From an uncultured delta proteobacterium (lineage in GTDB: Bacteria > Myxococcota_A > UBA9160 > SMWR01), in NCBI GenBank assembly GCA_963832165.1, contig CAWHTE010000003.1, positions 32,001 to 96,000 on the forward strand: a stretch of 64,000 nt of DNA. The letters are read 5' to 3'. A program made the translations under genes and the position numbers. Of the stretch, positions 1,718 through 15,567 are shown piece by piece. Positions within the stretch are counted from its first letter, which is position 1. Every line of letters starts with the position of its first letter. The notes below the pieces were generated by a model, which was given only the letters and a program-made list of their open reading frames with translations, searched no databases and had not been told where the DNA came from.

Positions 1718-4700
1718 TCAGGCGCGGTCGGCCGTCCGGCGCCGCCGCAGCCAGGCGAGCAGGGGCAGCGCGCAGCCGAGCGCGGCCCACGCACCGGGCT
1801 CGGGCAGGTACTCGACGACCAGGTCGTCGGTGCGCAGCCCCGCGCCCGTGAGGTCGTTGTTGACGACGAAGTCGAGCGTGTTCACGCCGTGTGCGAAGGC
1901 GCCGGGGAAGCTGCCTTCGTCGATCTGGAGCGCGTGCCACGCATTCGACCCGTTCGATGCGGAAGTGTGGCCCGTCGACGTGCCGTTGATCCGGATGTCG
2001 GTCGTGCCGTTCTGCGAGCTCCAGCGTCCCGTGAGGGTGACCGAGCTCAGCACCGCGTCGGCGGGGATCGTGAACGAGGTGCGGATCGTGTGGGCTCCGG
2101 GCAGCGAGCCCACCTCGAGCCACTGCGAGTCGGGCTCGGTGTGCGCGCAGTCGACCCAGCCCGGCGATGCGCAGCCGACCTGATCGCTGTTCGAGCCCGG
2201 CGGCCCGGCCGTGACCGCGTAGTGCGGATCGTCGCTGCCCGCCGCGAGCTTGGCAAAGGCCGCGTCGAGGCCGGTGTCGAAGAGATCGGTGACCGTCGCG
2301 GTCCCGACCGGCGGCGGCTGCACGTCGCCCGGATCGAGCTCGGCGAGGAACGCCGCGATCGCGCTGCGCTCGGCCGGCGTCGTGGATTCATTGGAGTGGG
2401 CCGCGATCGCCGCCTCGAGCGTCGCCGCGGAGCCGTCGTGGAGGTAGGGCGCGGTGGATCCGACACCGATCAGCGTCGGCGTGTCGAAGCCGTCGAGCGG
2501 TCCCTGGAGCCGGTGCCCGCTGCCCGCGTGGATCGTGCCGACGTCGTGACGCGCGTCGGGCGCGCTGTCGGTGAAGGTGGTGCCGGCGTGGCAGGTGCCG
2601 CAGCCGTGCTCTGCGAACGCGACGCGACCCTCCTGGGCCAGCGCCGAGAACGCGCCGCCCGCGCGCTGCGCGCTCGCGGGTGCGCTCGCGAGCGAGCCGA
2701 GGTAGGCCGCCAGCGCGTCGAGATCGGCGCTGAATCCGGCCTTCGGATCGCCCAGCGGCTGCGCGCGCGTGCCCGCAAAGAAGTCCGCGTTGTTCATGAG
2801 GCCGCTGCCGCCCGCGAGCGTGCGGATCTGGCCCTCGAAGTCCTGCACCTCGTCGAAGTTGCTGGTCCAGTGCAGGGGGCCCTGACCCAGGCCGGCCTTG
2901 CCGCGCAGATCGCTCGTGTTGCGCAGGCCTTCGCCGAAGCCCGAGAGATCCCAGACGCGGCCGTCCTGGCCGCCGTCGTTGTGGCACGACGCGCACGACA
3001 TGTAGTTGTCGCGCGCGAGCCGGTCGTCGGCCGCGTCGTAGAAGAGCCGCTTGCCGAGCAGCACGTTGGCGGGCATCTGCTCGGAAGCCACGGTCGTGAC
3101 GGTTCCGAGCAGCGGAGCCTGCGTCACGTGCAGCGCGACCATGTTCGTGACGTCGAAGCGCGTCAGGGTGCGATCCATGAAGTTGTGCACGTAGAGCGTG
3201 CGGCCGTTGCTCGAGAACGCGACGCCCTGCGGCGCGCGGCCGACGGCGAGCCGCGTCAGCTGGAAGCCCTGGGTCGTGTCGTAGACCGCCACCTCTTTGC
3301 TGGTCTCGAGCGCGACGAAGAGATACCGGCCGTCGCCCGTGACCGCGGCGCCGGTCGCTAAGCCCGCGTTGTCGTGGTCGATCCGCTGTCCGGTCTGTTC
3401 GGTGCCGCTCGGCAGATCCACCACCGAGGTCACCGCGCGCACGGTCTGGTCGAACGTCATGCCCGTGTTTCCGCGGTAGGCGCCGCCTCGCACGTTGTCC
3501 TGCTTCGACGGCACGTAGGCCTTCGAGCCGAAGAGCACTGGGGCGTTCAGGTAGTTCGCGATGCCCGGGCCCGAGACCTCGGCCGGCGGGCGACTCGAGT
3601 AGCCGAACGTGACCGTCTGCGAGAGCGTCATCGCGCCCGTCGCCACCGCGAACAGCTGGCCGCCGCCGCCGCTCACGTCGATCTGGTCGTCCTCACCCGG
3701 CAGCGGCGGGGTGACGAAGTTCGTGACGTAGAGCGTCTGGCCGTCGGCGCTCACGGCGAGATGGCGCGGCTTGCCGGAGAGCGCGGCACTGGCCGAGAGC
3801 GCTCCCGTCGAACGCGTGCGCTTGTCCACGCGCGCGAGCGCCTCGAGCGCGACGAAGAACGTGTCGCTGCCGGGTGCGAACGAGATGCCGTGCGGCTGCG
3901 AAGCCACGGGCAGCGTGACCGTGCGCACCACCGCGAGCGTCTGCGTGCTGATCACCGAGATCGTCGCCGATCCCTTGTTCGCGACGAACACCTCGTTCGC
4001 GAGCGGCGCCTTGGCGAGCGACCACGGGCGGTCGCCGACCTGGATCTCCGCGACGACCGCGCCCGCGGCGCTCGTGACGGTGACCGAGTGATTGTCCGGA
4101 TTCACGTTCCAGATGCGGTCGGCGCCGCTGCTGCCCTCGACGATCAGCGTCGTCGAGTGGAACGGAGCGGAGACGGGCGTCACGCCGTGCTCGGGCAGCC
4201 ACTTGGCGGGATCGCTCGGGAACGCGTCGGAGTTGTCGCCGTGGCCGTCGCCGTCGGTGTCGTCCCACTCGGTGGGATCGTTCGGGAAGGCATCCTCCGA
4301 GTCGGGCACGCCGTCGCCGTCGCTGTCCACGGGCGGCGGCGGCGGACCCACGTACACGAGGCGCATCCAGTCGAGCTTCGTGCCGGCTTCGCGGTGGATC
4401 ACCTCGACCGTGTGAGGTCCCGCGCCGAGCGTCACGAGCACGGGGTCGGTGGCCGTGAGCGCGTCGGAGACGAAGTCGGTCTGCCATGCGCTGTTGACGG
4501 GTATCTCCCAGTCGATGCCGCTGCTGGGCAGGCCGTCGACGAGGACCCAGAACGAATTCTGCCCGCTGGTCGCCGCGAGGACGCGACCTTCGAGCTTGTA
4601 CTGCCCGGGCTGCGCCACCGTGAACGTGAGCGCTCCCCGGCTGCGTGCTGGTCGGGCCGCTCGTCGACGCGGTGCCGCTCGGCAGCCAGATGTAGCGGCC

Positions 4701-7055
4701 GTTGCGCGCCGCTGCGTCGAGACCGACCGTGAGCGAGCCCGCGAGCACGGCGCTCTCGGCCTCGAGATCGAGGGGGTCGCCGGTGCCGCCGTCGTTGCGC
4801 AGCACCTGGAAGGTCTGGCCGATCGACGGCACGCCCGCGCTGTCGACCGCGAAGATCCAGTAGTAGCCCGGGATCAGCACGTTCGGGTTCGGCTCGAGCT
4901 GCACTGCGTAGGAGCCGTCGCCGTTGTCGGTGAAGGGGAGCGGCAGATAGCGCTGATCGGTGTTCATCGCGTGCGTGGTCGCCGAGAGCCGCACCATGCT
5001 GAACTTCGCGATCGTTCCCGTCGCGAACACGGTGATCTCGCCGCCTGCCTCGCCGATCGCGGGCGCCGCCGTGATCGCGGGCCGGCTCGCCAGGCTGCCG
5101 TCCGAGTTGAACAGGTACGGCGGCGAGAAGATCTGTCCGTCGAGATGGTTCGCGGCACAGCCGTCGCCGCACGCGCCGCCGCCCGCCGACAGCACGCGAG
5201 CGTCCTTGAGCAGGAGCGCGGTCGAGTGGTAGGTGCGGGCCACGGCCATGTTCGCGAGCGTGCGCCACTGGTTCGTGGTGGGGTTCCAGGCCTCGGCGGC
5301 GAAGACGGAGCCCGCGTCGTTGAACTGCACGCCGGTGTTGTTGCCGCCGATCACGAGCACCTCGCCGGTCGGCAGCGTCACCGAGTTGTGGAACGCGCGC
5401 GCAAACGCCATCGGCGCCGCCGACGAGATCACGGGGCTCGGGCCGTTGAGGTCGATCTGATAGACCGCGCTCGTGGTCGCGGGATTCTGGGTGCGGTCCG
5501 AGCCGCCCACGAGCAGCACCTTGCCCGCGCCGTAGGTGACCGCGTTGCCCCACATCCGCGTGCGCGTGCCCGCGGGCTGGCCGAGCGACTGCACGCTGCC
5601 CGAGTTGCGCGGATCGAACAGGTGCCAGGTCTGGGTCGGCCCGCCGTGAAAGACGCGCCCGTCCGGCGCCACGGCCATCTGACCCCACCACTCCAGCCCG
5701 CCGGCGGGGTTGGCGTCGTTCTGACCGTTCTCGGCGTTCTGCTCGTTGAGCAGGTCCTGCATCGTCGCGCCGGTGGTCGCGATCCAGTTGTTGGTCGCGG
5801 TGTTGTAGCGCTCGGAGGTGTTGCCGGCTCCGTTCGCGAAGGTCGCGAACAGCTCGTTGCTCGGCAGCGCGAGCACGGTGCTGTACCAGCGGTTCTGGTT
5901 CATGTTGTCGATCGCCTGCCACGCGAGCGTCGACGGGTTGAACGAGCTCGTGCGCGTGTCGAACGGATTGCCGCCGGCCGCGACGATCCGGCCGTCCTCG
6001 AGCGTGGAGACGCCCGCGCAGAACATGTCGTGGAAGTTGCTGTTGGTGGTCTGGAACGTGCTCGCGCTCGGGTCGAACACCGAGGAGTAGGTGAACTCCC
6101 GGTTGCTCGGGAATTCGTTCGTCTCGGTCGACGACCACGAGAGCACGCGCCCGTCGGGCAGGTTGGCCGCGCTGATCGCGATGTGCGGCCACGCGATCAC
6201 GGGGCCCCAGGATCCGAGCGTTGACACGGGGGGCGGCGGGGGTGGGGGCGGCGGCTCTCCTCCCGCGACGGCCGTGTTCATGTCGTTCTGGATCTCGGAC
6301 TGCGAGAGCGCGCGGTTGTAGATCCGCAGCTCGTCGATTCGTCCCGGGAAGAACTCGTCGCTGTAGGTGTTGCCCCCGATGCGGAGCGGGTTGTTATTGA
6401 CCTCGAGGCTGCCAGTGCGGCTCTGGCTGCCCACCTGGGTTCCGTTCAGGTACAGGCGCAGCGACGCTCCGTCGTAGGTGCCGGCCATGTAGGTCCACTC
6501 GTTCAAGGGCAGCGCGTTCGGTCCTTGCGCGGTGGTGCAACAGTTCCCAGCGAACGTCCCGCCGACTCCCACCTTGTTGCTGCTCGTGTTGGCGTTCAGG
6601 TAATAGGCATCTACTTCCTTCTGCAGGATCACCTTCCAGTCCGACATCGCCGACGTCGGATACACCCAGGCCTCGATCGTCATGCCCGTCGTCAGATCGA
6701 GCGAGCTCGAATCCGGGATCAGCACGACGTCGTTCGTGCCGTCGAAACTCAGCGCCGGGCCGTAGCGGCCCGACGGCGTCCGGATCGCGCCGCTGATCGA
6801 GCCGTGGTTCCCCAACCCCGAGGCGTCGGCGACGGTGGGCCCGCTCGCTTCGTCGAACGCGTACGCAGCGACAAGGCCCGACTGGGCCGAAGCCGTGCCC
6901 GCGGCGAGCGAGAGCGCGAGCGACGCAGCCCAGGCTGCCAGGCGGGAGTGGGGGGGTAGGGCTCTCGGCACGGCGGCGTTCGGCTCCCGGGGTGGATCGC
7001 GAGGCGAATGCCCGCCATTCCAAGTGGCCGCGAGTGGCTGGAAGGTTACAGCCAT
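1718..7055 (-). CDS. Large secreted multidomain protein: LamG, galactose-oxidase-like copper radical oxidase (kelch + Ig), CBM-like, TSP3 repeats, YVTN propeller, di-haem cytochrome c, PEP-CTERM; one frameshift near 4635-4645
   Basis: Joins ORF 3693..7055 (valid down to ~4640) and ORF 1718..4618. Motifs: HDMFCAG, NRWYST, ARTYHSTALL, SATTHAMNTDQR (CRO ligands); DSDGDGVPDSEDAFPNDP (TSP3); CASCH and CGTCH; TAPYLHDG; C-terminal LPEPGAWAALGCALPLLAWLRRRR. Confidence 0.85.
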
Positions 7056-7183
7056 GGTCGGGATTCCGATCCCGGCCCCCCGTCGGAGCCGGAAGCGCCG
7101 CAGAAACGGGTGAATTCAGCGGCGAGCTGCGCGTGGCTGTCACCGTCGGCGCAGCGCCGCCAGGACGGGCAGGGCGCGCGCGC

Positions 7184-8443
7184 CTAGGTTGGATCCAGCG
7201 CGCGCAAAAAGGAAGCGAGATTCGCGAGGTCGGGGTCCGAAAGTTCGAGCGCGCGCGGCAGTTCGTGCGGCACGGACGCCTTGTCCGGCGGATGCCGGTA
7301 GAACTCGAGTACCTGTTCGAGGGTAGAGAAGCGCCCGTCGTGCAGGTACGGAGCGGTCGACGAGAGATTGCGCAGTCCGGGCGTCCGAAACGCGCCGCGC
7401 TGCAGCGTCTGAATCTCGCTTCCGAATCCCCCGGTGGGTCCCAGGCAGTCCGAGCTGGGGGATCCATCCCGGAACCGGGTCTCGCAATTGAACTCGAAGT
7501 CGCGCAGGAGCTGCCGTCCCTGGGCGCGCCCGAGGTCCTCGTTGGGCGTCCCGAGATCGCCGGTTCCGATGTTGTGGAACAGGCGGTCCGTGAACAGCGG
7601 GCCGTGGTGACAGGAGAGACAGCCGCTGCGACCCGAGAGGAACACCTCGAGGCCGGCCACCTCGCGCGCGTCGAGATGGTCCAGCGCGTCGCGGTCGCGG
7701 CCCGCGAGCACCGCGTCCACATACGCGTCGAAGCGCGAGGGCCGCGAGCGCAGCGTGCGCTGGTAGGCCGCCAGCGCCTTGCCCAGATTCACGAAGGCGT
7801 GCGTGAGCGCGCTGCGATCGGCCTCGGGCAGCGCCGTCCAGGCCGCGCGCGCGGCGCTGTCGCCGTGCGGACCCGCGTCGGGGCGCAGCGTCTGCCAACG
7901 CACGCTCGGCAGCGGTCCGAACGCGCGCTCGTAGTGCTGCGCGAGCGACGGGTCGGCGGCGACGCGGTGCACGATCGCCGTGCGGCTTCCGCCCATCTCG
8001 TCGGGGGCCTCGAGCGGCCCCAGCGCCTGCGACCACAGGCTGTCGGCGCGCCCGTCCCAGAACAGCCAGCGCTGGTAGCCCACGTCGAGCAGCGAGGGCG
8101 CGTTCCGGCGCATCGTCGCGTGCCCGACCGAGCGCGCGCGTCCGTCGCTGAACGCGCGTTCCGGCAGATGGCAGGTCTGGCACGCGATCTCTCCGTTGCG
8201 GGAGAGCGACGGATCCGCGAACAGCGCTGCGCCGAGCGCGGCCGCGGCCGGATCGTCGCCCGCCGCATTGCCGCGGTCGGGAGGCGGCTCCGGCAGCGCC
8301 GAGATCCGCATCGTCGCGAGCAGTGCGCGCTCGCCGTCCGTCCACGAGCGGGGTACGCGCGCGTCAGCGTTCTGCGCACTGCCGCCGCACGCAGCGCACG
8401 CGAGCGCGAGCAGCAGCGCTCCTGCGCGGCTCGCGCGGATCAC
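7184..8443 (-). CDS. Di-haem cytochrome c peroxidase/MauG-family lipoprotein
   Basis: GTG start at 8443 overlaps the upstream stop. Lipobox-like LALAC; motifs CQTCH, LFWDGRADSL, CLSCH, FRTPGLRN, TAPYLHDG. Confidence 0.85.
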   Translation of the reverse strand: MIRASRAGALLLALACAACGGSAQNADARVPRSWTDGERALLATMRISALPEPPPDRGNAAGDDPAAAALGAALFADPSLSRNGEIACQTCHLPERAFSDGRARSVGHATMRRNAPSLLDVGYQRWLFWDGRADSLWSQALGPLEAPDEMGGSRTAIVHRVAADPSLAQHYERAFGPLPSVRWQTLRPDAGPHGDSAARAAWTALPEADRSALTHAFVNLGKALAAYQRTLRSRPSRFDAYVDAVLAGRDRDALDHLDAREVAGLEVFLSGRSGCLSCHHGPLFTDRLFHNIGTGDLGTPNEDLGRAQGRQLLRDFEFNCETRFRDGSPSSDCLGPTGGFGSEIQTLQRGAFRTPGLRNLSSTAPYLHDGRFSTLEQVLEFYRHPPDKASVPHELPRALELSDPDLANLASFLRALDPT

Positions 8444-9669
8444 CGCGCGGGCTCCACGCTCGAGAGCGCGCGCAGGAAGCGCTCGAGATCCTCGAGCTCG
8501 CGCTCGCGCAGACCCAGCGCGCGCAGCTCGTGGGCGGGATCCGCCGGCGGCGAGTTGTAGTAGTCGAGCACCTCGCGCAGCGTCGCGAAGCGGCCATCGT
8601 GCAGATACGGCGCGGTCTTGGCGACGTCGCGCAACGTCGGAGTCTTGTACGCGCCCTCGAGCGGGATGTGGGCGTCGCGCGAGAGGAAGCGAAGCTCGCT
8701 GCAGGCGTTCTCGGGCGCGTCGCTGTAGGGCCCCGCGCAGTTGAACACGTCGAGCAGCACTCCCTGGATGCCGAGCGCGCGCCCGAAGTCGAGCGTCGTG
8801 CCGGAGAAGGTGCCCGTGCCGAGATTGTGAAAGCCGCCGTTGGTGAGCTGCGGGCCGTTGTGGCACTGCATGCACTGCGTGCGCACGGGGTCGATGAACA
8901 GGCGCAGGCCCGAGACCTCGCGCGCATCGAGCAGCTGCGCCGCGCGGTCGGCGTGCCCCGCGCGCAGCGCGTCGACATAGAGATCGAAGCGCGAGTCGCC
9001 GGGCAGGAGCGTGCGCTCGAACGCCTCGAGCGCCTTGCCGAGGTTCGAGTACGCGCGGTCGATCTGATCGCGCCGCGCCTGCGGCAATCGCTGCCACTCC
9101 GCGCGCGCCGCGTCGCCCGCGAGCGGACCCGCGGGCTTGCTCAGTGCGGCGCCGAGCAGATCGGGGGGCAGGGGGCCGAAGATCGCCTCGTAGTCGGCGC
9201 GGTAGCGCGCGTCACTCGCGATCCGGCGCACGACTTCGGTTCGGGTCCCGCCGATCTCGTCGCTGGCTTCGAATGGAACGAGCGCTTGCGCCCAGAGCGA
9301 GTCGCGCCGGCCATCCCAGGTGAACCAGCTGCCGAACGCGGCGCCGACCACGCTCGGCGCGTTGCGGCCCGCGGGCCCCACCGAGCGCGCGCGTCCGTCG
9401 GTGTAGTGTCGCTCGGGCTGGTGGCAGGTCGCGCACGCGGTCTTGCCGGCTGCGCCGAATCCGGGATCGAAGAAGAGCCGCCGGCCGAGCGCTGCCGCGC
9501 GCGGGTCGTCCGCGACGCGATTCGAGGGCGAAGGCGGCGGCGTGCGCTCGAGTCGCAGCGAGCCGAGCACGCGCACGTCGCGCTCGCTCCACGGCGGTGT
9601 CTCTCCCGCACGCGCCGCCGTGGCAAGCGCGAGTGCGGCGAAGAGTGCCGTGGTGCAGCGCGCGCGCAT
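8440..9669 (-). CDS. Di-haem cytochrome c peroxidase/MauG-family protein
   Basis: Signal peptide; LGRRLFFDP, CATCH, TWDGRRDSL, CMQCH, YKTPTLRDV, TAPYLHDG. Confidence 0.9.
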   Translation of the reverse strand: MRARCTTALFAALALATAARAGETPPWSERDVRVLGSLRLERTPPPSPSNRVADDPRAAALGRRLFFDPGFGAAGKTACATCHQPERHYTDGRARSVGPAGRNAPSVVGAAFGSWFTWDGRRDSLWAQALVPFEASDEIGGTRTEVVRRIASDARYRADYEAIFGPLPPDLLGAALSKPAGPLAGDAARAEWQRLPQARRDQIDRAYSNLGKALEAFERTLLPGDSRFDLYVDALRAGHADRAAQLLDAREVSGLRLFIDPVRTQCMQCHNGPQLTNGGFHNLGTGTFSGTTLDFGRALGIQGVLLDVFNCAGPYSDAPENACSELRFLSRDAHIPLEGAYKTPTLRDVAKTAPYLHDGRFATLREVLDYYNSPPADPAHELRALGLRERELEDLERFLRALSSVEPAR

Positions 9670-9672
9670 GCT

Positions 9673-10113
9673 TCAGAAGTCGATCGCCATGTCGAAGCGC
9701 AGGAGATCGCGCCGCATCGCCGTCTCCACGCGCACTTCGAGCACCCAGGTGCCGTGCATGTTCAACTTCAACCCCTCGATGCGATAGAGCCCGTCGCCCA
9801 TCTCTTCGGTGACCTGCGGCTGGGTCGGGAGCCCGTGCCCGTGGCTCGGCATCCCGCCCGAGATCGAGACGAGAGCGCTTGTGACCGCGGCGCCGCCCGG
9901 CTCGCGCAGCTCGAGGATCCAGGTCTGGAACCGGCCCACCTCGACCGCACCGGATTCCGGCGCGAGCCGGCCCGTCAGGCCGCGGTCGGAGGTCGCCCGC
10001 CAGCCCGGTCGATCGGGGTCGGGCTCGGCGGGCTCGGGAGCGCGGACTTCACGGGCGCAGCCGGCGATGAAGAGGCAGGCCCACAGCGCGACGCCGATCG
10101 CGACACGTTTCAC
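9673..10113 (-). CDS. YtkA/FixH-like lipoprotein
   Basis: Lipobox FIAGC; GGMPSHGHGLPTQP and GLYRIEGLKLNMHGTW are characteristic of YtkA-like Ig domains. Confidence 0.75.
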   Translation of the reverse strand: MKRVAIGVALWACLFIAGCAREVRAPEPAEPDPDRPGWRATSDRGLTGRLAPESGAVEVGRFQTWILELREPGGAAVTSALVSISGGMPSHGHGLPTQPQVTEEMGDGLYRIEGLKLNMHGTWVLEVRVETAMRRDLLRFDMAIDF

Positions 10114-10132: not shown

Positions 10133-11641
10133 TCAGGAGCTGCGTTTCACCACCGCGAAGAACGCGCCGCCATCGCGCCGCAGCGCGAGCAGAGCCTTGT
10201 CGTCGGCCTTGCTGAGCTTCGTCTCCGCATCGAGCCCGTCCGCGACACGCTTGCGGTCGACTTCCTCGATCACGTCGCCCAGGCGCAGCCCCGCGTTCGC
10301 GGCGGGACTGCCCGGGTAGACACCCGTGATCACGGCGCCGCCTTTCGCGACCTCGAGCTTTCCACGGAGTTCGTCTGGCACGTCCGTGATGTCGAAGCCG
10401 AACGCGGTCGATCCGTGCTCGTCGGACGGCTCCGCGCGCGCCACGGGCGGCGGTGCCTCCTCTTTGAGCTCGGCGACCTCGACCGTCTTCGTCAGCTCCT
10501 TGCGGTCGCGGAGCAGCGCGAGCTTCACCGTCGTACCGGGCTTCGCCGCGGCGACCGCGCGCGGCAGGTCGCGCGTCCGCACGATCTCGGTCTCACCGAA
10601 GCCCACGATCAGGTCGCCGCGCTCGAGGCCCGCTTTCGCTGCGGGACCGTTCGGAGCGACCTCCGACACGAGCGCGCCTTTCTGCGTCGAGAGATCCAGC
10701 GCCTCGGCGATGTCGGGGGTCGCGGATTGCACCGCGACGCCGAGCCAGCCGCGCACGACGCGTCCCTCCTTCTCGAGCTGCGGCAGGATCTCCTTGGCCA
10801 TCTGGCTCGGCACCGCGAAGCCGATCGTGTTGGCCTGCGGGTTGATCGCGGTGTTGATGCCGACCACTTCGCCCTTGAGGTCGAGCAGCGGGCCGCCCGA
10901 GTTGCCCGGGTTGATCGCAGCGTCGGTCTGGATGAAGTCGTCGTAGGGACCCTGGCCGATGTCGCGGCCCGTCGCAGAGACGATGCCCGCGGTGACGGTG
11001 TGGTCGAGGCCGAACGGATTGCCGACCGCGATCACCCAGTCGCCCGGCAACAGCGCCGTCGAGTCGCCGAGCGGCAATGCCGTGTAGGCGCGCTTGGCCT
11101 TCGCACGGATCAGCGCGATCTCGGTCTTCGGATCGGTCCCGACGACGGTCGCCTCGGAGTGCGTGCCGTCCTGGAACACGACGTCGATCTTCTGCACGCC
11201 GGCGACGACGTGGTGATTGGTCACGATCAGGCCCGAGTCCGAGATCACGAAGCCCGTTCCGAGGCTCGGCACGGTGACGCGGCGCTGCGCGGGCGGGTCG
11301 AGCGGAGAGCGCGGTTCCGCGAGCCCGCCGCGCTGTCCGAACAAGCCGCCGAACAACTCGTCCAGCCCCCCGAGATCGGGCGCGTCGATCGTCTTCTCGG
11401 TGTGCACGTTGACGACGCCCGGCGCGACGGCGCGTGCGAGGATCGCGAAGCGCGAGTGCGCGCCGTCCCCTGCGATGGCGACGTCGGGCAGATCCCCGTG
11501 CGCGGCGATCGGCGCCGCCATCTCTGCGTGCGCGCTCGTCGGCCCGACCGCGCTCGTGAAGGCGATACCGAGTCCTGCAGTGCAACCCGCGGCGAGCGCG
11601 ATTCCCGCAGCGAACCAGCGGATGCTTCCGGCAGCGATCAT
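10133..11641 (-). CDS. degP: Do/DegP-family periplasmic serine endoprotease with two PDZ domains
   Basis: TNHHVV, DPKTEIAL and IQTDAAINPGNSGGPL motifs, followed by two PDZ-like segments. Confidence 0.92.
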   Translation of the reverse strand: MIAAGSIRWFAAGIALAAGCTAGLGIAFTSAVGPTSAHAEMAAPIAAHGDLPDVAIAGDGAHSRFAILARAVAPGVVNVHTEKTIDAPDLGGLDELFGGLFGQRGGLAEPRSPLDPPAQRRVTVPSLGTGFVISDSGLIVTNHHVVAGVQKIDVVFQDGTHSEATVVGTDPKTEIALIRAKAKRAYTALPLGDSTALLPGDWVIAVGNPFGLDHTVTAGIVSATGRDIGQGPYDDFIQTDAAINPGNSGGPLLDLKGEVVGINTAINPQANTIGFAVPSQMAKEILPQLEKEGRVVRGWLGVAVQSATPDIAEALDLSTQKGALVSEVAPNGPAAKAGLERGDLIVGFGETEIVRTRDLPRAVAAAKPGTTVKLALLRDRKELTKTVEVAELKEEAPPPVARAEPSDEHGSTAFGFDITDVPDELRGKLEVAKGGAVITGVYPGSPAANAGLRLGDVIEEVDRKRVADGLDAETKLSKADDKALLALRRDGGAFFAVVKRSS

Positions 11642-11920: not shown

Positions 11921-12607
11921 ATGACGAAGCGACTCGAACAGCTCGAGCTGACGTTCCGCAGCCATGGCGGCAAGCGAGACGGAGCCGGGCGCAAGCCGGC
12001 CTCGACGCGCCCGCCCGTACATCACGTCCGGCGGCCGAAGGTGCCCAAGGGAAGTCCGGCACACGTCACGCTACGCGTGCGGCGCGATGTGCCTTCGCTG
12101 CGCAGCCGCCGCTTCTTCCGCGACTTTCAGGAGCGACTGCGCGCCGGCTGCGAGCGCGGCGAGTTCCGCGTCTGCCACTTCTCGATTCAGCCCGATCATG
12201 TGCACCTGGTGGTGGAGGCTGCCGGCAAGGAGGCCCTGGGTCGCGGGATGAAGTCGGTCGGGATCCGTCTCGCGCGGGCCGTGAACCGGGTGTTCGGACG
12301 AAAGGGTCCGGTGCTGTTCGGGCGCTACCACCTGCGCGTGCTGCGCACGCCGCGTGAGGTGCGGAATGCGCTCGCGTACGTCCTGCTGAACGCGCGCAAG
12401 CATTGGCAGAAGCGGAACGGGAGCGCTCCGCCGGTCTTGGTCGACATCGCGTCGTCCGGCGCCTGGTTCGACGGCTGGAAGCGGCCGCCGCCCACCCCGG
12501 ATCCCAAAGGCACGCCTCCGGTGGCGCCAGCTCGATTCTGGCTCTTGAGGGAAGGATGGCGCCGCCGTGGGTTGGTGGATCCCGCAGAGGTTCCGGGCAG
12601 CGCGTAG
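11921..12607 (+). CDS. REP-associated tyrosine transposase-like protein (RAYT / IS200-family Y1 HUH)
   Basis: HVTLR, HUH motif PDHVHLVVEA, catalytic Tyr in ALAYVLLNARKH, N-terminal GGKRDGAGRKP. No tnpB downstream. Confidence 0.85.
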   Translation: MTKRLEQLELTFRSHGGKRDGAGRKPASTRPPVHHVRRPKVPKGSPAHVTLRVRRDVPSLRSRRFFRDFQERLRAGCERGEFRVCHFSIQPDHVHLVVEAAGKEALGRGMKSVGIRLARAVNRVFGRKGPVLFGRYHLRVLRTPREVRNALAYVLLNARKHWQKRNGSAPPVLVDIASSGAWFDGWKRPPPTPDPKGTPPVAPARFWLLREGWRRRGLVDPAEVPGSA

Positions 12608-12662
12608 GGCAGGTGAAGCCCGGCCGAAAGGGCTCGCTTGGCTCGGGTCGCTCAGGATGACA
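12604..12662. repeat. REP-like imperfect hairpin between the convergent transposase and kinase genes
   Basis: GTAGGGC (containing the transposase stop), then an AGCCC-loop-GGGCT stem, ending in CGCTCAGGATGACA. Confidence 0.4.
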
Positions 12663-13539
12663 ATACGCGAGCAATGTCGAGTCGCGAGGAGTTCCACTCA
12701 TCGCGTGGCTCGGCGGCTGCGCGTGCGAAGGTCCAGAGCCGAACGCTCTCTGCGTCGACGCCGAGGAGGTCCACGAAGCGATCGATCGTCTCGTTGGGCT
12801 TGGCGAGCAGTCGCTCCACGCAGTAGAACAGGTGCTGCGTAGCGTCGTACGCGGGGTCACCGACGAATGGCTTGGGGTCGATCATCAGCCATGGCTCGCG
12901 GCGCGCTCGCAAGATGTTTCCCGCGTGAAGATCGGTCACCAGGAGAACGCTTGCAGACGCCGACCGAGGAAGTTCCTCGAAGAGCGCTAGTCCGGCACGC
13001 ACGAGACCGGGGTCGATCCAGTGCTCGGCGTCGGCCAGCGTCTCCGTCGCCCAGTGAGCCAGCATCGCCGTCAACGGACGGAACGGATGCAAGTCGGCCG
13101 GGGCGCGCCAGAGCCTCCGAAGCAAGCTTGCGACGATTACGTCTTGATCCGGCTCTGGACGCTCGCGCAGCAGCGTGCCGGGCTCACAGCGCTCGAGGAG
13201 CATCGCGCCGACTGACTCGTCGGCCTCGAGGAGACGAACGGTCCCGTCGCCGTTCCAGAGACACAGGCCGGCGATTTCGTGATCTCCCTCCATATGGGGC
13301 ATTCGGATCTTGAGCACGGCGCGGACACCGACGCTACGAGTCGCGGGCGCGACCCACGCCGCGCCTCCCTCGTCGGTGTCGAACGGGGTATCGATCGTGA
13401 GTGACCAACGATCGCCGAGATCACGCACCACTCCGGGCAGCCGCTCGAGCCACGCGGAGCGTTCCGGAGTCTTGCGGCAGTTGCGGGCGAGAGAACTGGG
13501 GATGATCACGGCTATGCCACTGCGGCCGGTAGTGCGCAA
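12652..13539 (-). CDS. APH(6)/StrB-like aminoglycoside/hydroxyurea-resistance kinase family protein
   Basis: AVLKI, MLLERCEPG, DLHAGNIL, IDPKPFVGDPAYD. True start may be the GTG near 13509. Confidence 0.85.
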   Translation of the reverse strand: MRTTGRSGIAVIIPSSLARNCRKTPERSAWLERLPGVVRDLGDRWSLTIDTPFDTDEGGAAWVAPATRSVGVRAVLKIRMPHMEGDHEIAGLCLWNGDGTVRLLEADESVGAMLLERCEPGTLLRERPEPDQDVIVASLLRRLWRAPADLHPFRPLTAMLAHWATETLADAEHWIDPGLVRAGLALFEELPRSASASVLLVTDLHAGNILRARREPWLMIDPKPFVGDPAYDATQHLFYCVERLLAKPNETIDRFVDLLGVDAESVRLWTFARAAAEPRDEWNSSRLDIARVLSS

Positions 13540-13544
13540 CTAGT

Positions 13545-15567
13545 CTAGTGCCGTGGACCCTCGCTCGGAACCGCCGCCGTCGGCCCGCTCTCGAGCGGCG
13601 GCGCGGGCGGAAGTCCCGTCACCTCGAGGATCTCGCGCTCGTCGAGCGTCTCGCGCTCGAGCAGCGCGGCGACCAGCGCGTCGAGCGGCTTGCGGTGCTC
13701 GGAGAGCAGCCGCACGGCATCCTCGTGGCTCTCGCCGATGATGCGCTGCACCTCGGAGTCGATCACGCGCGCGGTCTCCTCGGAAAACGGCGGGTCGGCG
13801 CCGCATTCCTGCGACACTGCCGAGGAACGGGTTCGCGCGCGGCGCGAGCTGTACGAGCCCGAGCGCGTCGCTCATTCCCCAGCGCGTGACCATGTTGCGC
13901 GCGATCTGGGTGGCCTGCTCGATGTCGTTCTCCGCGCCCGTGGTGCGCGTGCCGTAGACGATCTCCTCGGCGGCGCGTCCGCCGAGCATGCCCACGATAC
14001 GCGCGCGCAGATAGCCCTCGGGATAGTTGTAGCGGTCGCTCTCGGGGCGCTGATAGGTCACGCCGAGCGCCTGGCCGCGCGGCACGATCGTCACGCGGTT
14101 CACGGGATCGGCGCCGGGCACGACCAGCCCCAGGATCGCGTGCCCGCCCTCGTGGTAGGCGATGCGCTCGCGGTCGGCGCGCGAGAGCAGGAGAGGGCGC
14201 TCGGGCCCCAGGATGATCTTCTCGAGCGCATCGATGAAGTCCTTCTGCCGCACTTCGTCCTGCTCGCGGCGCGCCGCGAGCAGCGCGGCTTCGTTCACGA
14301 GGTTGCGCAGGTCCGCACCCGAGAGTCCCGGCGTGGTCGACGCGAGCTCGGTCATGTCGACGTCTTTCGCGAGCGGGATCCCGCGCGTGTGGACCGCGAG
14401 GATCGCCTCGCGGCCGGCCTTGTCGGGAAGGTTCACGACGACGCGGCGATCGAAGCGGCCGGGCCGCAGCAACGCCCGGTCGAGCACCTCGGGCTGGTTC
14501 GTCGCCGCGAGCACGATGATGCCCTCGCGGCTCGAGAAGCCGTCCATCTCGGTGAGGATCTGGTTGAGCGTCTGCTCCTGCTCGCTCGAGCCCCCGATCG
14601 CCACGGCGCCGCGCGCGCGGCCGATCGAATCGATCTCGTCGATGAAGATGATCGCGGGTGCGTGCTCGCGCGCCTGCTTGAACAGATCGCGCACGCGCGC
14701 CGCACCCACGCCGACGATCATCTCCACGAACTCCGCGGCGCTCATCGAGAAGAACGGAACGCCCGCCTCGCCCGCGACGGCCCGCGCGAGCAGCGTCTTT
14801 CCGGTTCCGGGCGCACCCACGAGCAGCACGCCCTTGGGCGCCGTGCCGCCGAGCCGCGTGTACTTCTTCGGATCGCGCAGAAAGTCGACGATCTCGACCA
14901 GCTCGTTCTCGGCCTCGTCGATGCCCGCGACGTCTTCGAACGTGACGCGCCCGGTCGCCTCCGTGTCGTAACGGCGCGCGCGGCTGCGCCCGATGCCCAT
15001 GAGGCCGCCGCCCTGCGCGGCCGCGCGCCGGAACATGAACACGTAGAAGCCGATCAACAGGATGGCGGGCCCGAAGCCGTAGAGCAGCGTCGACCACCAG
15101 CTGCTCGACTGGATCGGGACCGCGCTGATCTCGACGCCGTGCTTGATCAGGAAGTCCTCGAGGCCCGGGTCGACGAACGCAGGCAGCGTCGTGGTGAACT
15201 CGCTCGCGGTGCGCGGCGCGGATGGAGCCGCAAGGCCGAACCCCATCGGCTCGTCTCGCTGCGCGGCCATGTCTTCCGCGGCTGGCTCCTTCTTCTCGGG
15301 CGGCCACGTGACCGGCGCCGCAAAGCGGCCCTCGATGCTCTCGCCGCGGCTGTAGATCGACTCGACGTTGCGCTTCGCGACTTCCTGCTTGAACGCCGTG
15401 TAGGGCACGGTGATCGGCTCGGAAGCGGGAAAGAAGAGCCGCATCACGAGGAAGTTCGCGATCAGCGCGGCCAGGAATGCCATCCAGATCTGGCGCGGCG
15501 GCAGGACCGTCTGCCTGGGCGTCTTGGGCTCTCCGGGCTCTGCCTTGCGTCGTTCCATCGCCATCAC
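13545..15567 (-). CDS. ftsH: ATP-dependent zinc metalloprotease FtsH, frameshifted near 13805-13815
   Basis: Two TM helices, [29 protein letters not shown]. The C-terminus [13 protein letters not shown]...LLERETL lies in ORF 13545..13817. Confidence 0.93.

Follow-up and report, generated by a model that had tools for sequence, protein, structure and literature searches.

Copper radical oxidases convert primary alcohols to aldehydes while reducing O2 to H2O2; prized as biocatalysts, they reach full activity only when a peroxidase is supplied. What does it mean when a bacterium encodes such an oxidase in one chain with a di-haem module? The question is raised by a locus in a 64,000-nucleotide stretch of DNA (the window) from an uncultured delta proteobacterium (Myxococcota_A; assembly GCA_963832165.1, contig CAWHTE010000003.1, positions 32,001 to 96,000). 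An earlier note made from the letters of the window (the sequence-only reading) placed four co-oriented genes here, and all four indeed lie on the minus strand at 1718..10113: a gene for a YtkA-like lipoprotein, two for free di-haem proteins and one for an oxidase fused to a propeller and a further di-haem domain. We describe the fusion, its spread and its neighbours, and tentatively propose that it is an oxidase reactivated by its own peroxide.

The largest gene (1718..7055, or from a GTG start at 6971) encodes, with one frame change allowed, a protein of about 1,750–1,780 amino acids (1,778 from the ATG at 7055 or 1,750 from the GTG at 6971). After a signal peptide, a LamG/concanavalin-like domain (6273..6884; Pfam Laminin_G_3, E 6.5e-35) leads into the copper radical oxidase domain (4800..6218). 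There follow a linker domain (4352..4769), which carries the frame change and is in frame in the C7 paralog discussed below and in homologs P0002, P0006 and P0009; acidic DxDxDG repeats of TSP3-like appearance, seen in the sequence behind a poly-proline stretch (4199..4327); a seven-bladed YVTN propeller (3101..4189); and the fused di-haem domain (2333..3100). A domain of about 160 residues (1811..2293), which lies outside the conserved core, is missing from the C7 paralog and gave no match in a Pfam scan, precedes a PEP-CTERM sorting signal (1718..1804) recognizable by its PEP motif, hydrophobic stretch and Arg tail. Exosortase matches in the host genome fit this tail; the protein gave no NCBIfam PEP-CTERM match at E 0.001. 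Across the locus, Pfam and NCBIfam matches (LamG, Kelch/GO E-set, YncE/YVTN, CCP_MauG and YtkA) support the LamG, oxidase, YVTN and di-haem labels of the sequence-only reading. Its CBM-like and TSP3 labels are matters of resemblance: the linker domain looks similar to CBM6/35, its C-terminal half (the half scanned) having no Pfam match, and TSP_3 matches are present in homologs and absent from the window protein. A promoter and terminator scan of the locus gave nothing above shuffled sequences.

The oxidase domain matches the bacterial structure 9G8H (E 7.6e-96) and Fusarium galactose oxidase (E about 1e-78), and its Cys (6018-6020), two Tyr (5883-5885 and 5229-5231) and two His (5226-5228 and 4971-4973) are in register with both, as expected for a galactose-oxidase domain that retains all cofactor residues. 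A Cys–Tyr pair together with Tyr, His and His copper ligands on a Kelch propeller with an E-set domain characterizes AA5 copper radical oxidases, and the five residues are invariant wherever covered among 183 family members. Like AA5_2 oxidases (1GOF; bacterial 9G8H/9G43; Colletotrichum AlcOx 5C86), the window protein also has Phe at the presumed 194 and 464 positions. Unlike them, RWY replaces RGY in 171 of 180 fused domains, and the window-type family has an extra helix and the fused haem module.

Trp290 and Arg330 matter for galactose binding (PMC4703870, PMC8207647). Because Trp290 is not kept (Phe or Gly stands there, depending on the alignment) and the R-x-D-N-H/Arg330 motif is absent, the substrate is probably another alcohol or glycan, as far as these residues indicate, and 'galactose oxidase' was rejected as a substrate claim. 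The domain scores 155.8 bits against the GlxA equivalog NF052501, below its cut-off of 800. The lectin-like and immunoglobulin (Ig) domains flanking the oxidase vary freely between family members.

The propeller and the fused di-haem domain are predicted as one unit (pLDDT 90.5, pTM 0.92). YncE/YVTN family matches mark the propeller, and a VIA structure search with the propeller placed hydrazine synthase (HZS) beta first (5c2v_B; Z 36.6, rmsd 2.0, 302 residues aligned), with an archaeal YVTN propeller, 1l0q_A, a close second (Z 35.5); Foldseek reverses the order. With the di-haem domain, a sequence search of the PDB returned 3o5c (E 1.7e-10) and, second-best, HZS gamma (5c2v_C, E 2.5e-9). Its two CxxCH motifs (2981-2995 and 2588-2602), the Trp (2867-2869) and, from the distal Gln/Glu pair, the Gln align with bacterial cytochrome c peroxidases and MauG; the second residue of the pair, Glu, falls in a gap, in a loop of low pLDDT. 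At the distal position of haem 2 stands a His (2396-2398), kept in 199 of 201 covering rows and in 148 of 150 representatives, at a site where peroxidases have Met and MauG has Tyr (PMC6405878). A canonical His/Met cytochrome c peroxidase and a His/Tyr MauG-type protein were therefore both rejected as identities for the module.

Judged by its sequence and predicted structure, the fused module is HZS-βγ-like. It shares with HZS βγ and its non-anammox homologs (5C2V; PMC12758564) a seven-bladed propeller followed by a di-haem domain with a distal His at haem 2, and with the non-anammox homologs a Trp between the haems, where true HZS has His. Fused βγ homologs with this Trp are reported to be common in environmental bacteria (Hagglund et al., PMC12758564); neither the main text nor one supplement of that article mentions 'galactose' or a fusion to an oxidase. 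True HZS differs in further respects: NF052342 gives 47 bits against a cut-off of 1250, the window protein comes without an α subunit and has an oxidase as its partner, and no α-like gene is among the recurrent neighbours of the oxidase loci. The three di-haem units are thus not all alike: the two free proteins, which the sequence-only reading placed in the MauG/CCP family, have the MauG-type Tyr, and the fused one has His.

The architecture is common. A search for long proteins (>1,085 residues) gave 3,018 matches among 8,000 scored, and of the best 120 long homologs, 115 contain the oxidase and 112 all five cofactor residues. A search unbiased by length found 1,354 clusters with an E-value of 1e-30 or lower; among the best 150, the oxidase is present in 124 (107 complete), always upstream of the di-haem module, and most of the other 26 representatives start mid-domain. 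The same holds at the level of genes: far from homologs never being fused, 71 of 80 named genome loci carry the fusion in one open reading frame (ORF), with 8 cut by a contig start and 1 split, and these loci come from taxa including Myxococcota, Gammaproteobacteria, Burkholderiales, Verrucomicrobiota and one Trueperaceae. On this sequence evidence the fusion is a single-gene architecture, as the sequence-only reading had supposed, and widespread. Each part belongs to a known family and partnerships of such oxidases with haem enzymes are known; we found no published study of the oxidase–di-haem fusion, of a YtkA–MauG pair or of YtkA together with a cytochrome c peroxidase, in searches that did not reach the bulk of subscription papers or of bioRxiv supplements.

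Several variants were seen beside the common form. One homolog, P0001, has two tandem propeller–di-haem modules (four CxxCH) behind a single oxidase. At two loci (L017:7276-11256 and L018:8748-13145) the module stands behind an LVIVD-type domain (a Pfam match in L017) and Ig domains with no oxidase; from their sequences, these LVIVD–module proteins are a second uncharacterised family. A single 1,774-residue frame in G164 that spans oxidase, di-haem and YtkA was rejected as a four-way fusion, as it has a sorting signal and a new signal peptide inside.

How the two halves are arranged was addressed with a model of homolog L026 (oxidase, a 91-residue linker and module; 1,182 residues), which gave a pTM of 0.82 with the linker disordered. 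As this exceeds the 0.54–0.62 that we estimate for unplaced halves, the module is predicted to pack against the oxidase.

The three smaller genes lie upstream of the oxidase gene. The first encodes the YtkA-like protein (9673..10113; Pfam YtkA, E 1.8e-11, 45 bits against a cut-off of 25.9), a predicted copper carrier with a lipobox Cys (10057-10059), an M-P-x-H-x-H motif (9835-9852) and an M-x-G-x-W motif (9745-9759). It had been called His/Met-rich, a description that 3 His and 5 Met in 146 residues do not support; instead it has a conserved motif, of which Met, His, His, Met and Trp are invariant in 25 of 25 aligned homologs. The second gene encodes di-haem protein 1 (8440..9669; Pfam CCP_MauG, E 1e-38), with a signal peptide, two CxxCH motifs, an inter-haem Trp (9316-9318) and a distal Tyr (8557-8559). 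The third, the start of which overlaps the stop of the second, encodes di-haem protein 2 (7184..8443; E 1.8e-45), a probable lipoprotein 47% identical to protein 1, with its distal Tyr at 7298-7300.

In both free proteins this Tyr stands in the alignment where bacterial peroxidases have their Met ligand, and 30 of 30 sequences keep it. The free proteins therefore appear, from the alignment, to be MauG/MbnH/BthA-like and Tyr-ligated at haem 2. They share with these enzymes the Tyr at the six-coordinate haem and Trp, Gln and Glu on the haem 1 side; they differ from MauG and MbnH in that no mau or mbn operon is present and the partner is YtkA-like, with M-x-G-x-W in place of W-x-W. Neither equivalog cut-off is reached (TIGR03791, 129–156 bits against 443.85; TIGR04039, 119–146 bits against 362.85). 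In a quick tree from which rows shorter than 280 residues were dropped, oxidase-associated MauG-like proteins form one clade (SH-aLRT 97), and di-haem protein 2 falls in its own clade of four members.

Are these neighbours tied to the oxidase? Within the class of the host, 29 of 225 genomes carry the oxidase family, called at thresholds of 1e-140 (module) or 1e-90 (oxidase) that we chose from gaps in the match list. YtkA is present in all 29 and a MauG-like gene in 28 of them, against 8 and 8 of the 196 others, counts in which kin genomes are not independent. The co-occurrence claimed from the window alone is therefore found class-wide. Distribution is patchy within one genus, where G001 (95% complete) and G003 (90%) have none of the three with these queries and G004 and G005 have the exact gene order. 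By the place tables, a MauG-like gene adjoins the oxidase gene in 24 of 29 genomes; only 5 of 28 have two copies, which is a lineage-specific duplication.

Across the 80 named loci, the slot next to the oxidase holds YtkA and a MauG-like gene in 20, an MbnP–MbnH fusion in 9 (Pfam-checked in 2) and Sco in 9 (checked in 1, with 3 of the Sco matches weak). Two kinds of helper occur together at only 1 of 80 loci, and some copper helper is present at 37 of 80, or at 28 of the 45 with long flanks. YtkA and the MauG-like protein form one ORF in L034, L044 and L052. Genomes with several oxidase paralogs, the host included, have one helper set; G157, G167, G172 and G181 have 3–4 paralogs and a single MauG-like gene.

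Since other lineages carry MbnP–MbnH or Sco in the same slot, the YtkA and MauG-type neighbours are likely to be copper-loading factors, by analogy, and not co-catalysts, and the sharing of one helper set by several oxidase paralogs fits maturation in trans. MbnH is the enzyme that creates the kynurenine copper site of MbnP (PMC11951088), and YtkA domains cooperate with Sco when CuA is assembled (PMC13344008).

The true MbnP–MbnH fusions that fill this slot are single chains directly upstream of the oxidase in Verrucomicrobiota (L057, L061, L071, L082, L086, L088, L092, L094 and L100); eight of the nine have Leu two residues before W-x-W, and L086 has Met. In Burkholderiales and Polyangiales, Sco and a small single-CxxCH protein (no Pfam match in L075, the one scanned) lie by the oxidase in L065, L075, L085, L087, L089 and L093. 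More distant pairs of YtkA and MauG-like genes lie by a YHYH protein, an NHL propeller and an F5/8-domain protein (L109 (G154:C11), L110 and L112), and such pairs may, from their gene context, mark other unknown copper proteins.

Together, these elements suggest a mechanism to which we give a little less than an even chance: a self-reactivating oxidase driven by its own peroxide through the fused haem module, with copper loading by YtkA and MauG-type proteins. The exported and likely surface-anchored oxidase would oxidise a primary alcohol and release H2O2, with lectin-like domains holding the alcohol or glycan substrate nearby. H2O2 would oxidise haem 1 of the module, predicted to be packed on the oxidase, and the oxidising equivalent could then reach the off-cycle Cu(II)–Tyr by way of the conserved Trp or of haem 2 with its two His ligands; such re-oxidation would keep the enzyme active and remove peroxide. 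The Met/His motif of YtkA would hold the copper that it carries, the Tyr-ligated MauG-type proteins would be maturation catalysts, probably with the carrier as their target in the way that MbnP is for MbnH, and a single helper set would serve several oxidase paralogs.

Both halves of the proposal derive from published analogies. Peroxide-driven re-oxidation is suggested by the tandem peroxidase that activates fungal AlcOx (Colletotrichum, Magnaporthe) by one-electron oxidation in close contact (PMC9770985): there too a haem enzyme is genetically tied to a copper radical oxidase, although that peroxidase is separate and its activation shown, whereas here a c-type di-haem unit would do so within the same chain. 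Copper loading by YtkA and MauG is suggested by the need for Sco and DtpA in GlxA maturation (PMC4736821) and by the mtoX–SCO1–mauG clusters (PMC5739008), which likewise combine a copper oxidase, a chaperone and a haem enzyme. Chaperone–MauG fusions occur in the mtoX clusters as well as at the oxidase loci. The mtoX and GlxA systems differ in oxidase or haem family, and in neither is a haem module fused to the oxidase.

Among published natural activators, the fungal tandem pair is the clearest that we found. If the proposal is true, the bacterial fusion would be an enzyme that activates itself within one chain, ready for use, and would give a simple setting in which to study haem-to-radical transfer. 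A role open to testing is also suggested for two orphan groups: the His-ligated βγ-like di-haem proteins related to HZS, and the MauG-type clade with its likely substrate, YtkA, next door. A bolder form, which we regard as doubtful, makes this a family of self-switching oxidases in which the βγ-like unit docks as on HZS α and recharges the radical, and in which YtkA–MauG is a new chaperone with an enzyme-made, Trp-derived copper site, interchangeable with MbnP–MbnH and Sco. Were it true, it would give the common non-anammox βγ homologs their first function and add a copper-chaperone system to those known.

A number of observations weigh against the self-reactivating oxidase. Complete oxidases without the module exist (P0242, P0250, P0252, P0254, P0255, P0259 and P0260), and P0242, 66% identical, falls within the fused clade. 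Modules that stand alone behind a signal peptide of their own make up about 6 of 120 and 3 of 150 homologs, and the module is also joined to LVIVD domains. Docking comes from one homolog, modelled without a control or a view of the geometry; the linker ranges from about 45–55 to 1,005 residues across the family; and in a covariation analysis (180 sequences, effective 112) inter-domain pairs account for 19 of the 100 strongest but for 50% of all pairs, and they form no coherent cluster. Glu 115, invariant among the free di-haem enzymes, aligns with no residue of the fused module, so that peroxidase activity of the latter is not assured. On the side of the helpers, the two free di-haem genes are a lineage-specific trait, no copper helper lies close to the oxidase at 17 of the 45 loci with long flanks, and of five genomes outside the class two have no YtkA match and two hold the YtkA–MauG pair elsewhere. 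The Cys–Tyr link forms autocatalytically (PMC11951088), and no helper is therefore required for that step. With oxidases lacking the module, modules lacking an oxidase and oxidase genomes lacking helpers, the earlier term 'self-contained' was too strong.

These occurrences of the module on its own and behind other N-terminal domains are what would be expected if the oxidase merely supplied H2O2 and the βγ-like module used it on a second substrate (an aldehyde, a nitrogen compound or a surface protein). Such a two-step catalyst, which we consider unlikely, would also accord with the widely differing tether length, with the joining of the module to several separate oxidase lineages in a tree of 96 of 276 oxidase domains, and with the many invariant acidic and Arg residues near haem 1 (H440, D446, E447, D450 and R456). 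However, a pTM of 0.82 suggests a fixed contact that peroxide diffusion does not need, and no conserved neighbour gene hints at a second substrate.

The predicted docking is also compatible with an electron relay, in which the His/His haem takes electrons from reduced copper and passes them to cytochrome c, feeding respiration instead of making peroxide. HZS haem γII is bis-His and a proposed electron-transfer haem (PMC12607021, PMC12758564), and a small mono-CxxCH protein adjoins the gene at 6 of 80 loci. The same protein is missing from the other 74, many members of the family are surface-anchored or released, far from periplasmic carriers, and the active site is that of O2-reducing oxidases; we therefore judge a relay to be distinctly unlikely.

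A third possibility concerns the helpers, and we rate it as improbable: the MauG-type neighbours might modify the oxidase chain, and not YtkA, by making a Trp-derived cofactor or cross-link, as proposed for mtoX–SCO1–mauG. The gene logic is the same as in those methanethiol oxidase clusters (PMC5739008), both halves of the fusion contain a conserved Trp, and the oxidase-associated MauG-like proteins form a single clade. Against this, the MauG-like gene accompanies YtkA even where the two are fused and where they lie away from the oxidase; Sco-type loci have no MauG-like gene nearby; and the distant YtkA–MauG pairs sit by unrelated genes.

The coding frame of the large gene, traced by a GC3 profile, switches once near 4643-4650. 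The C7 paralog (G000:C7:209000-214500, L013), 88% identical in DNA, is in frame through this junction, and the comparison reveals exactly one extra base in the window around 4643 (4643..4646) and one in the paralog elsewhere. Homolog P0002 (1,722 residues) is intact, with the same LamG–oxidase–propeller–di-haem order and no break at the junction. Further frame changes in the assembly affect FtsH, the gene at 2-1675, one C11 gene and one exosortase; a check of 54 gene stretches against proteins encoded at other loci flagged 7, and with 2 multi-gene artefacts set aside and the 3 stretches of one and the same paralog counted once, 3 distinct genes remain. No contig from the four public runs compared with the whole locus, or from the four compared with the junction, bridges 4643; five runs carried only 5–7% of the words of the locus, and no RNA data set was listed as containing it. 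Because the paralog and homologs are in frame and other genes of the assembly are frame-changed as well, the extra base is likely to be an assembly error, and the single gene of about 1,780 codons inferred from the window after one repair is corroborated by both. That the frameshift is real in the host strain, making the gene a pseudogene or one that yields two pieces, is highly improbable: none of the reads obtainable came from that strain and a second paralog could render one copy dispensable, but both pieces keep all motifs and a high GC3, the paralog likewise has a single extra base in an assembly with other frame-changed genes, and the downstream piece has no signal peptide.

No helper genes lie near the C7 paralog, and it lacks a PEP-CTERM tail. 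It shares 98% identity with the window gene in the LamG domain and 68–88% in the remainder, a difference that suggests, at the sequence level, a recent domain exchange between the two genes.

Two further genes flank the locus on the same strand. A multi-pass membrane protein gene (2-1675) lies 43 bp downstream of the oxidase gene, with a frame change near 600 and no Pfam match, and a gene for a DegP-like protease (trypsin and two PDZ domains; 10133-11641) lies 20 bp upstream of ytkA. Both were rejected as members of the module, as neither is a conserved neighbour and degP is not there in G004 or G005. Further upstream (11921-15567) are an IS200-like transposase, an APH_6_hur kinase-family gene and a frameshifted FtsH gene. 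Since FtsH directly precedes ytkA in G004, the genes between the two in the window look like an insertion.

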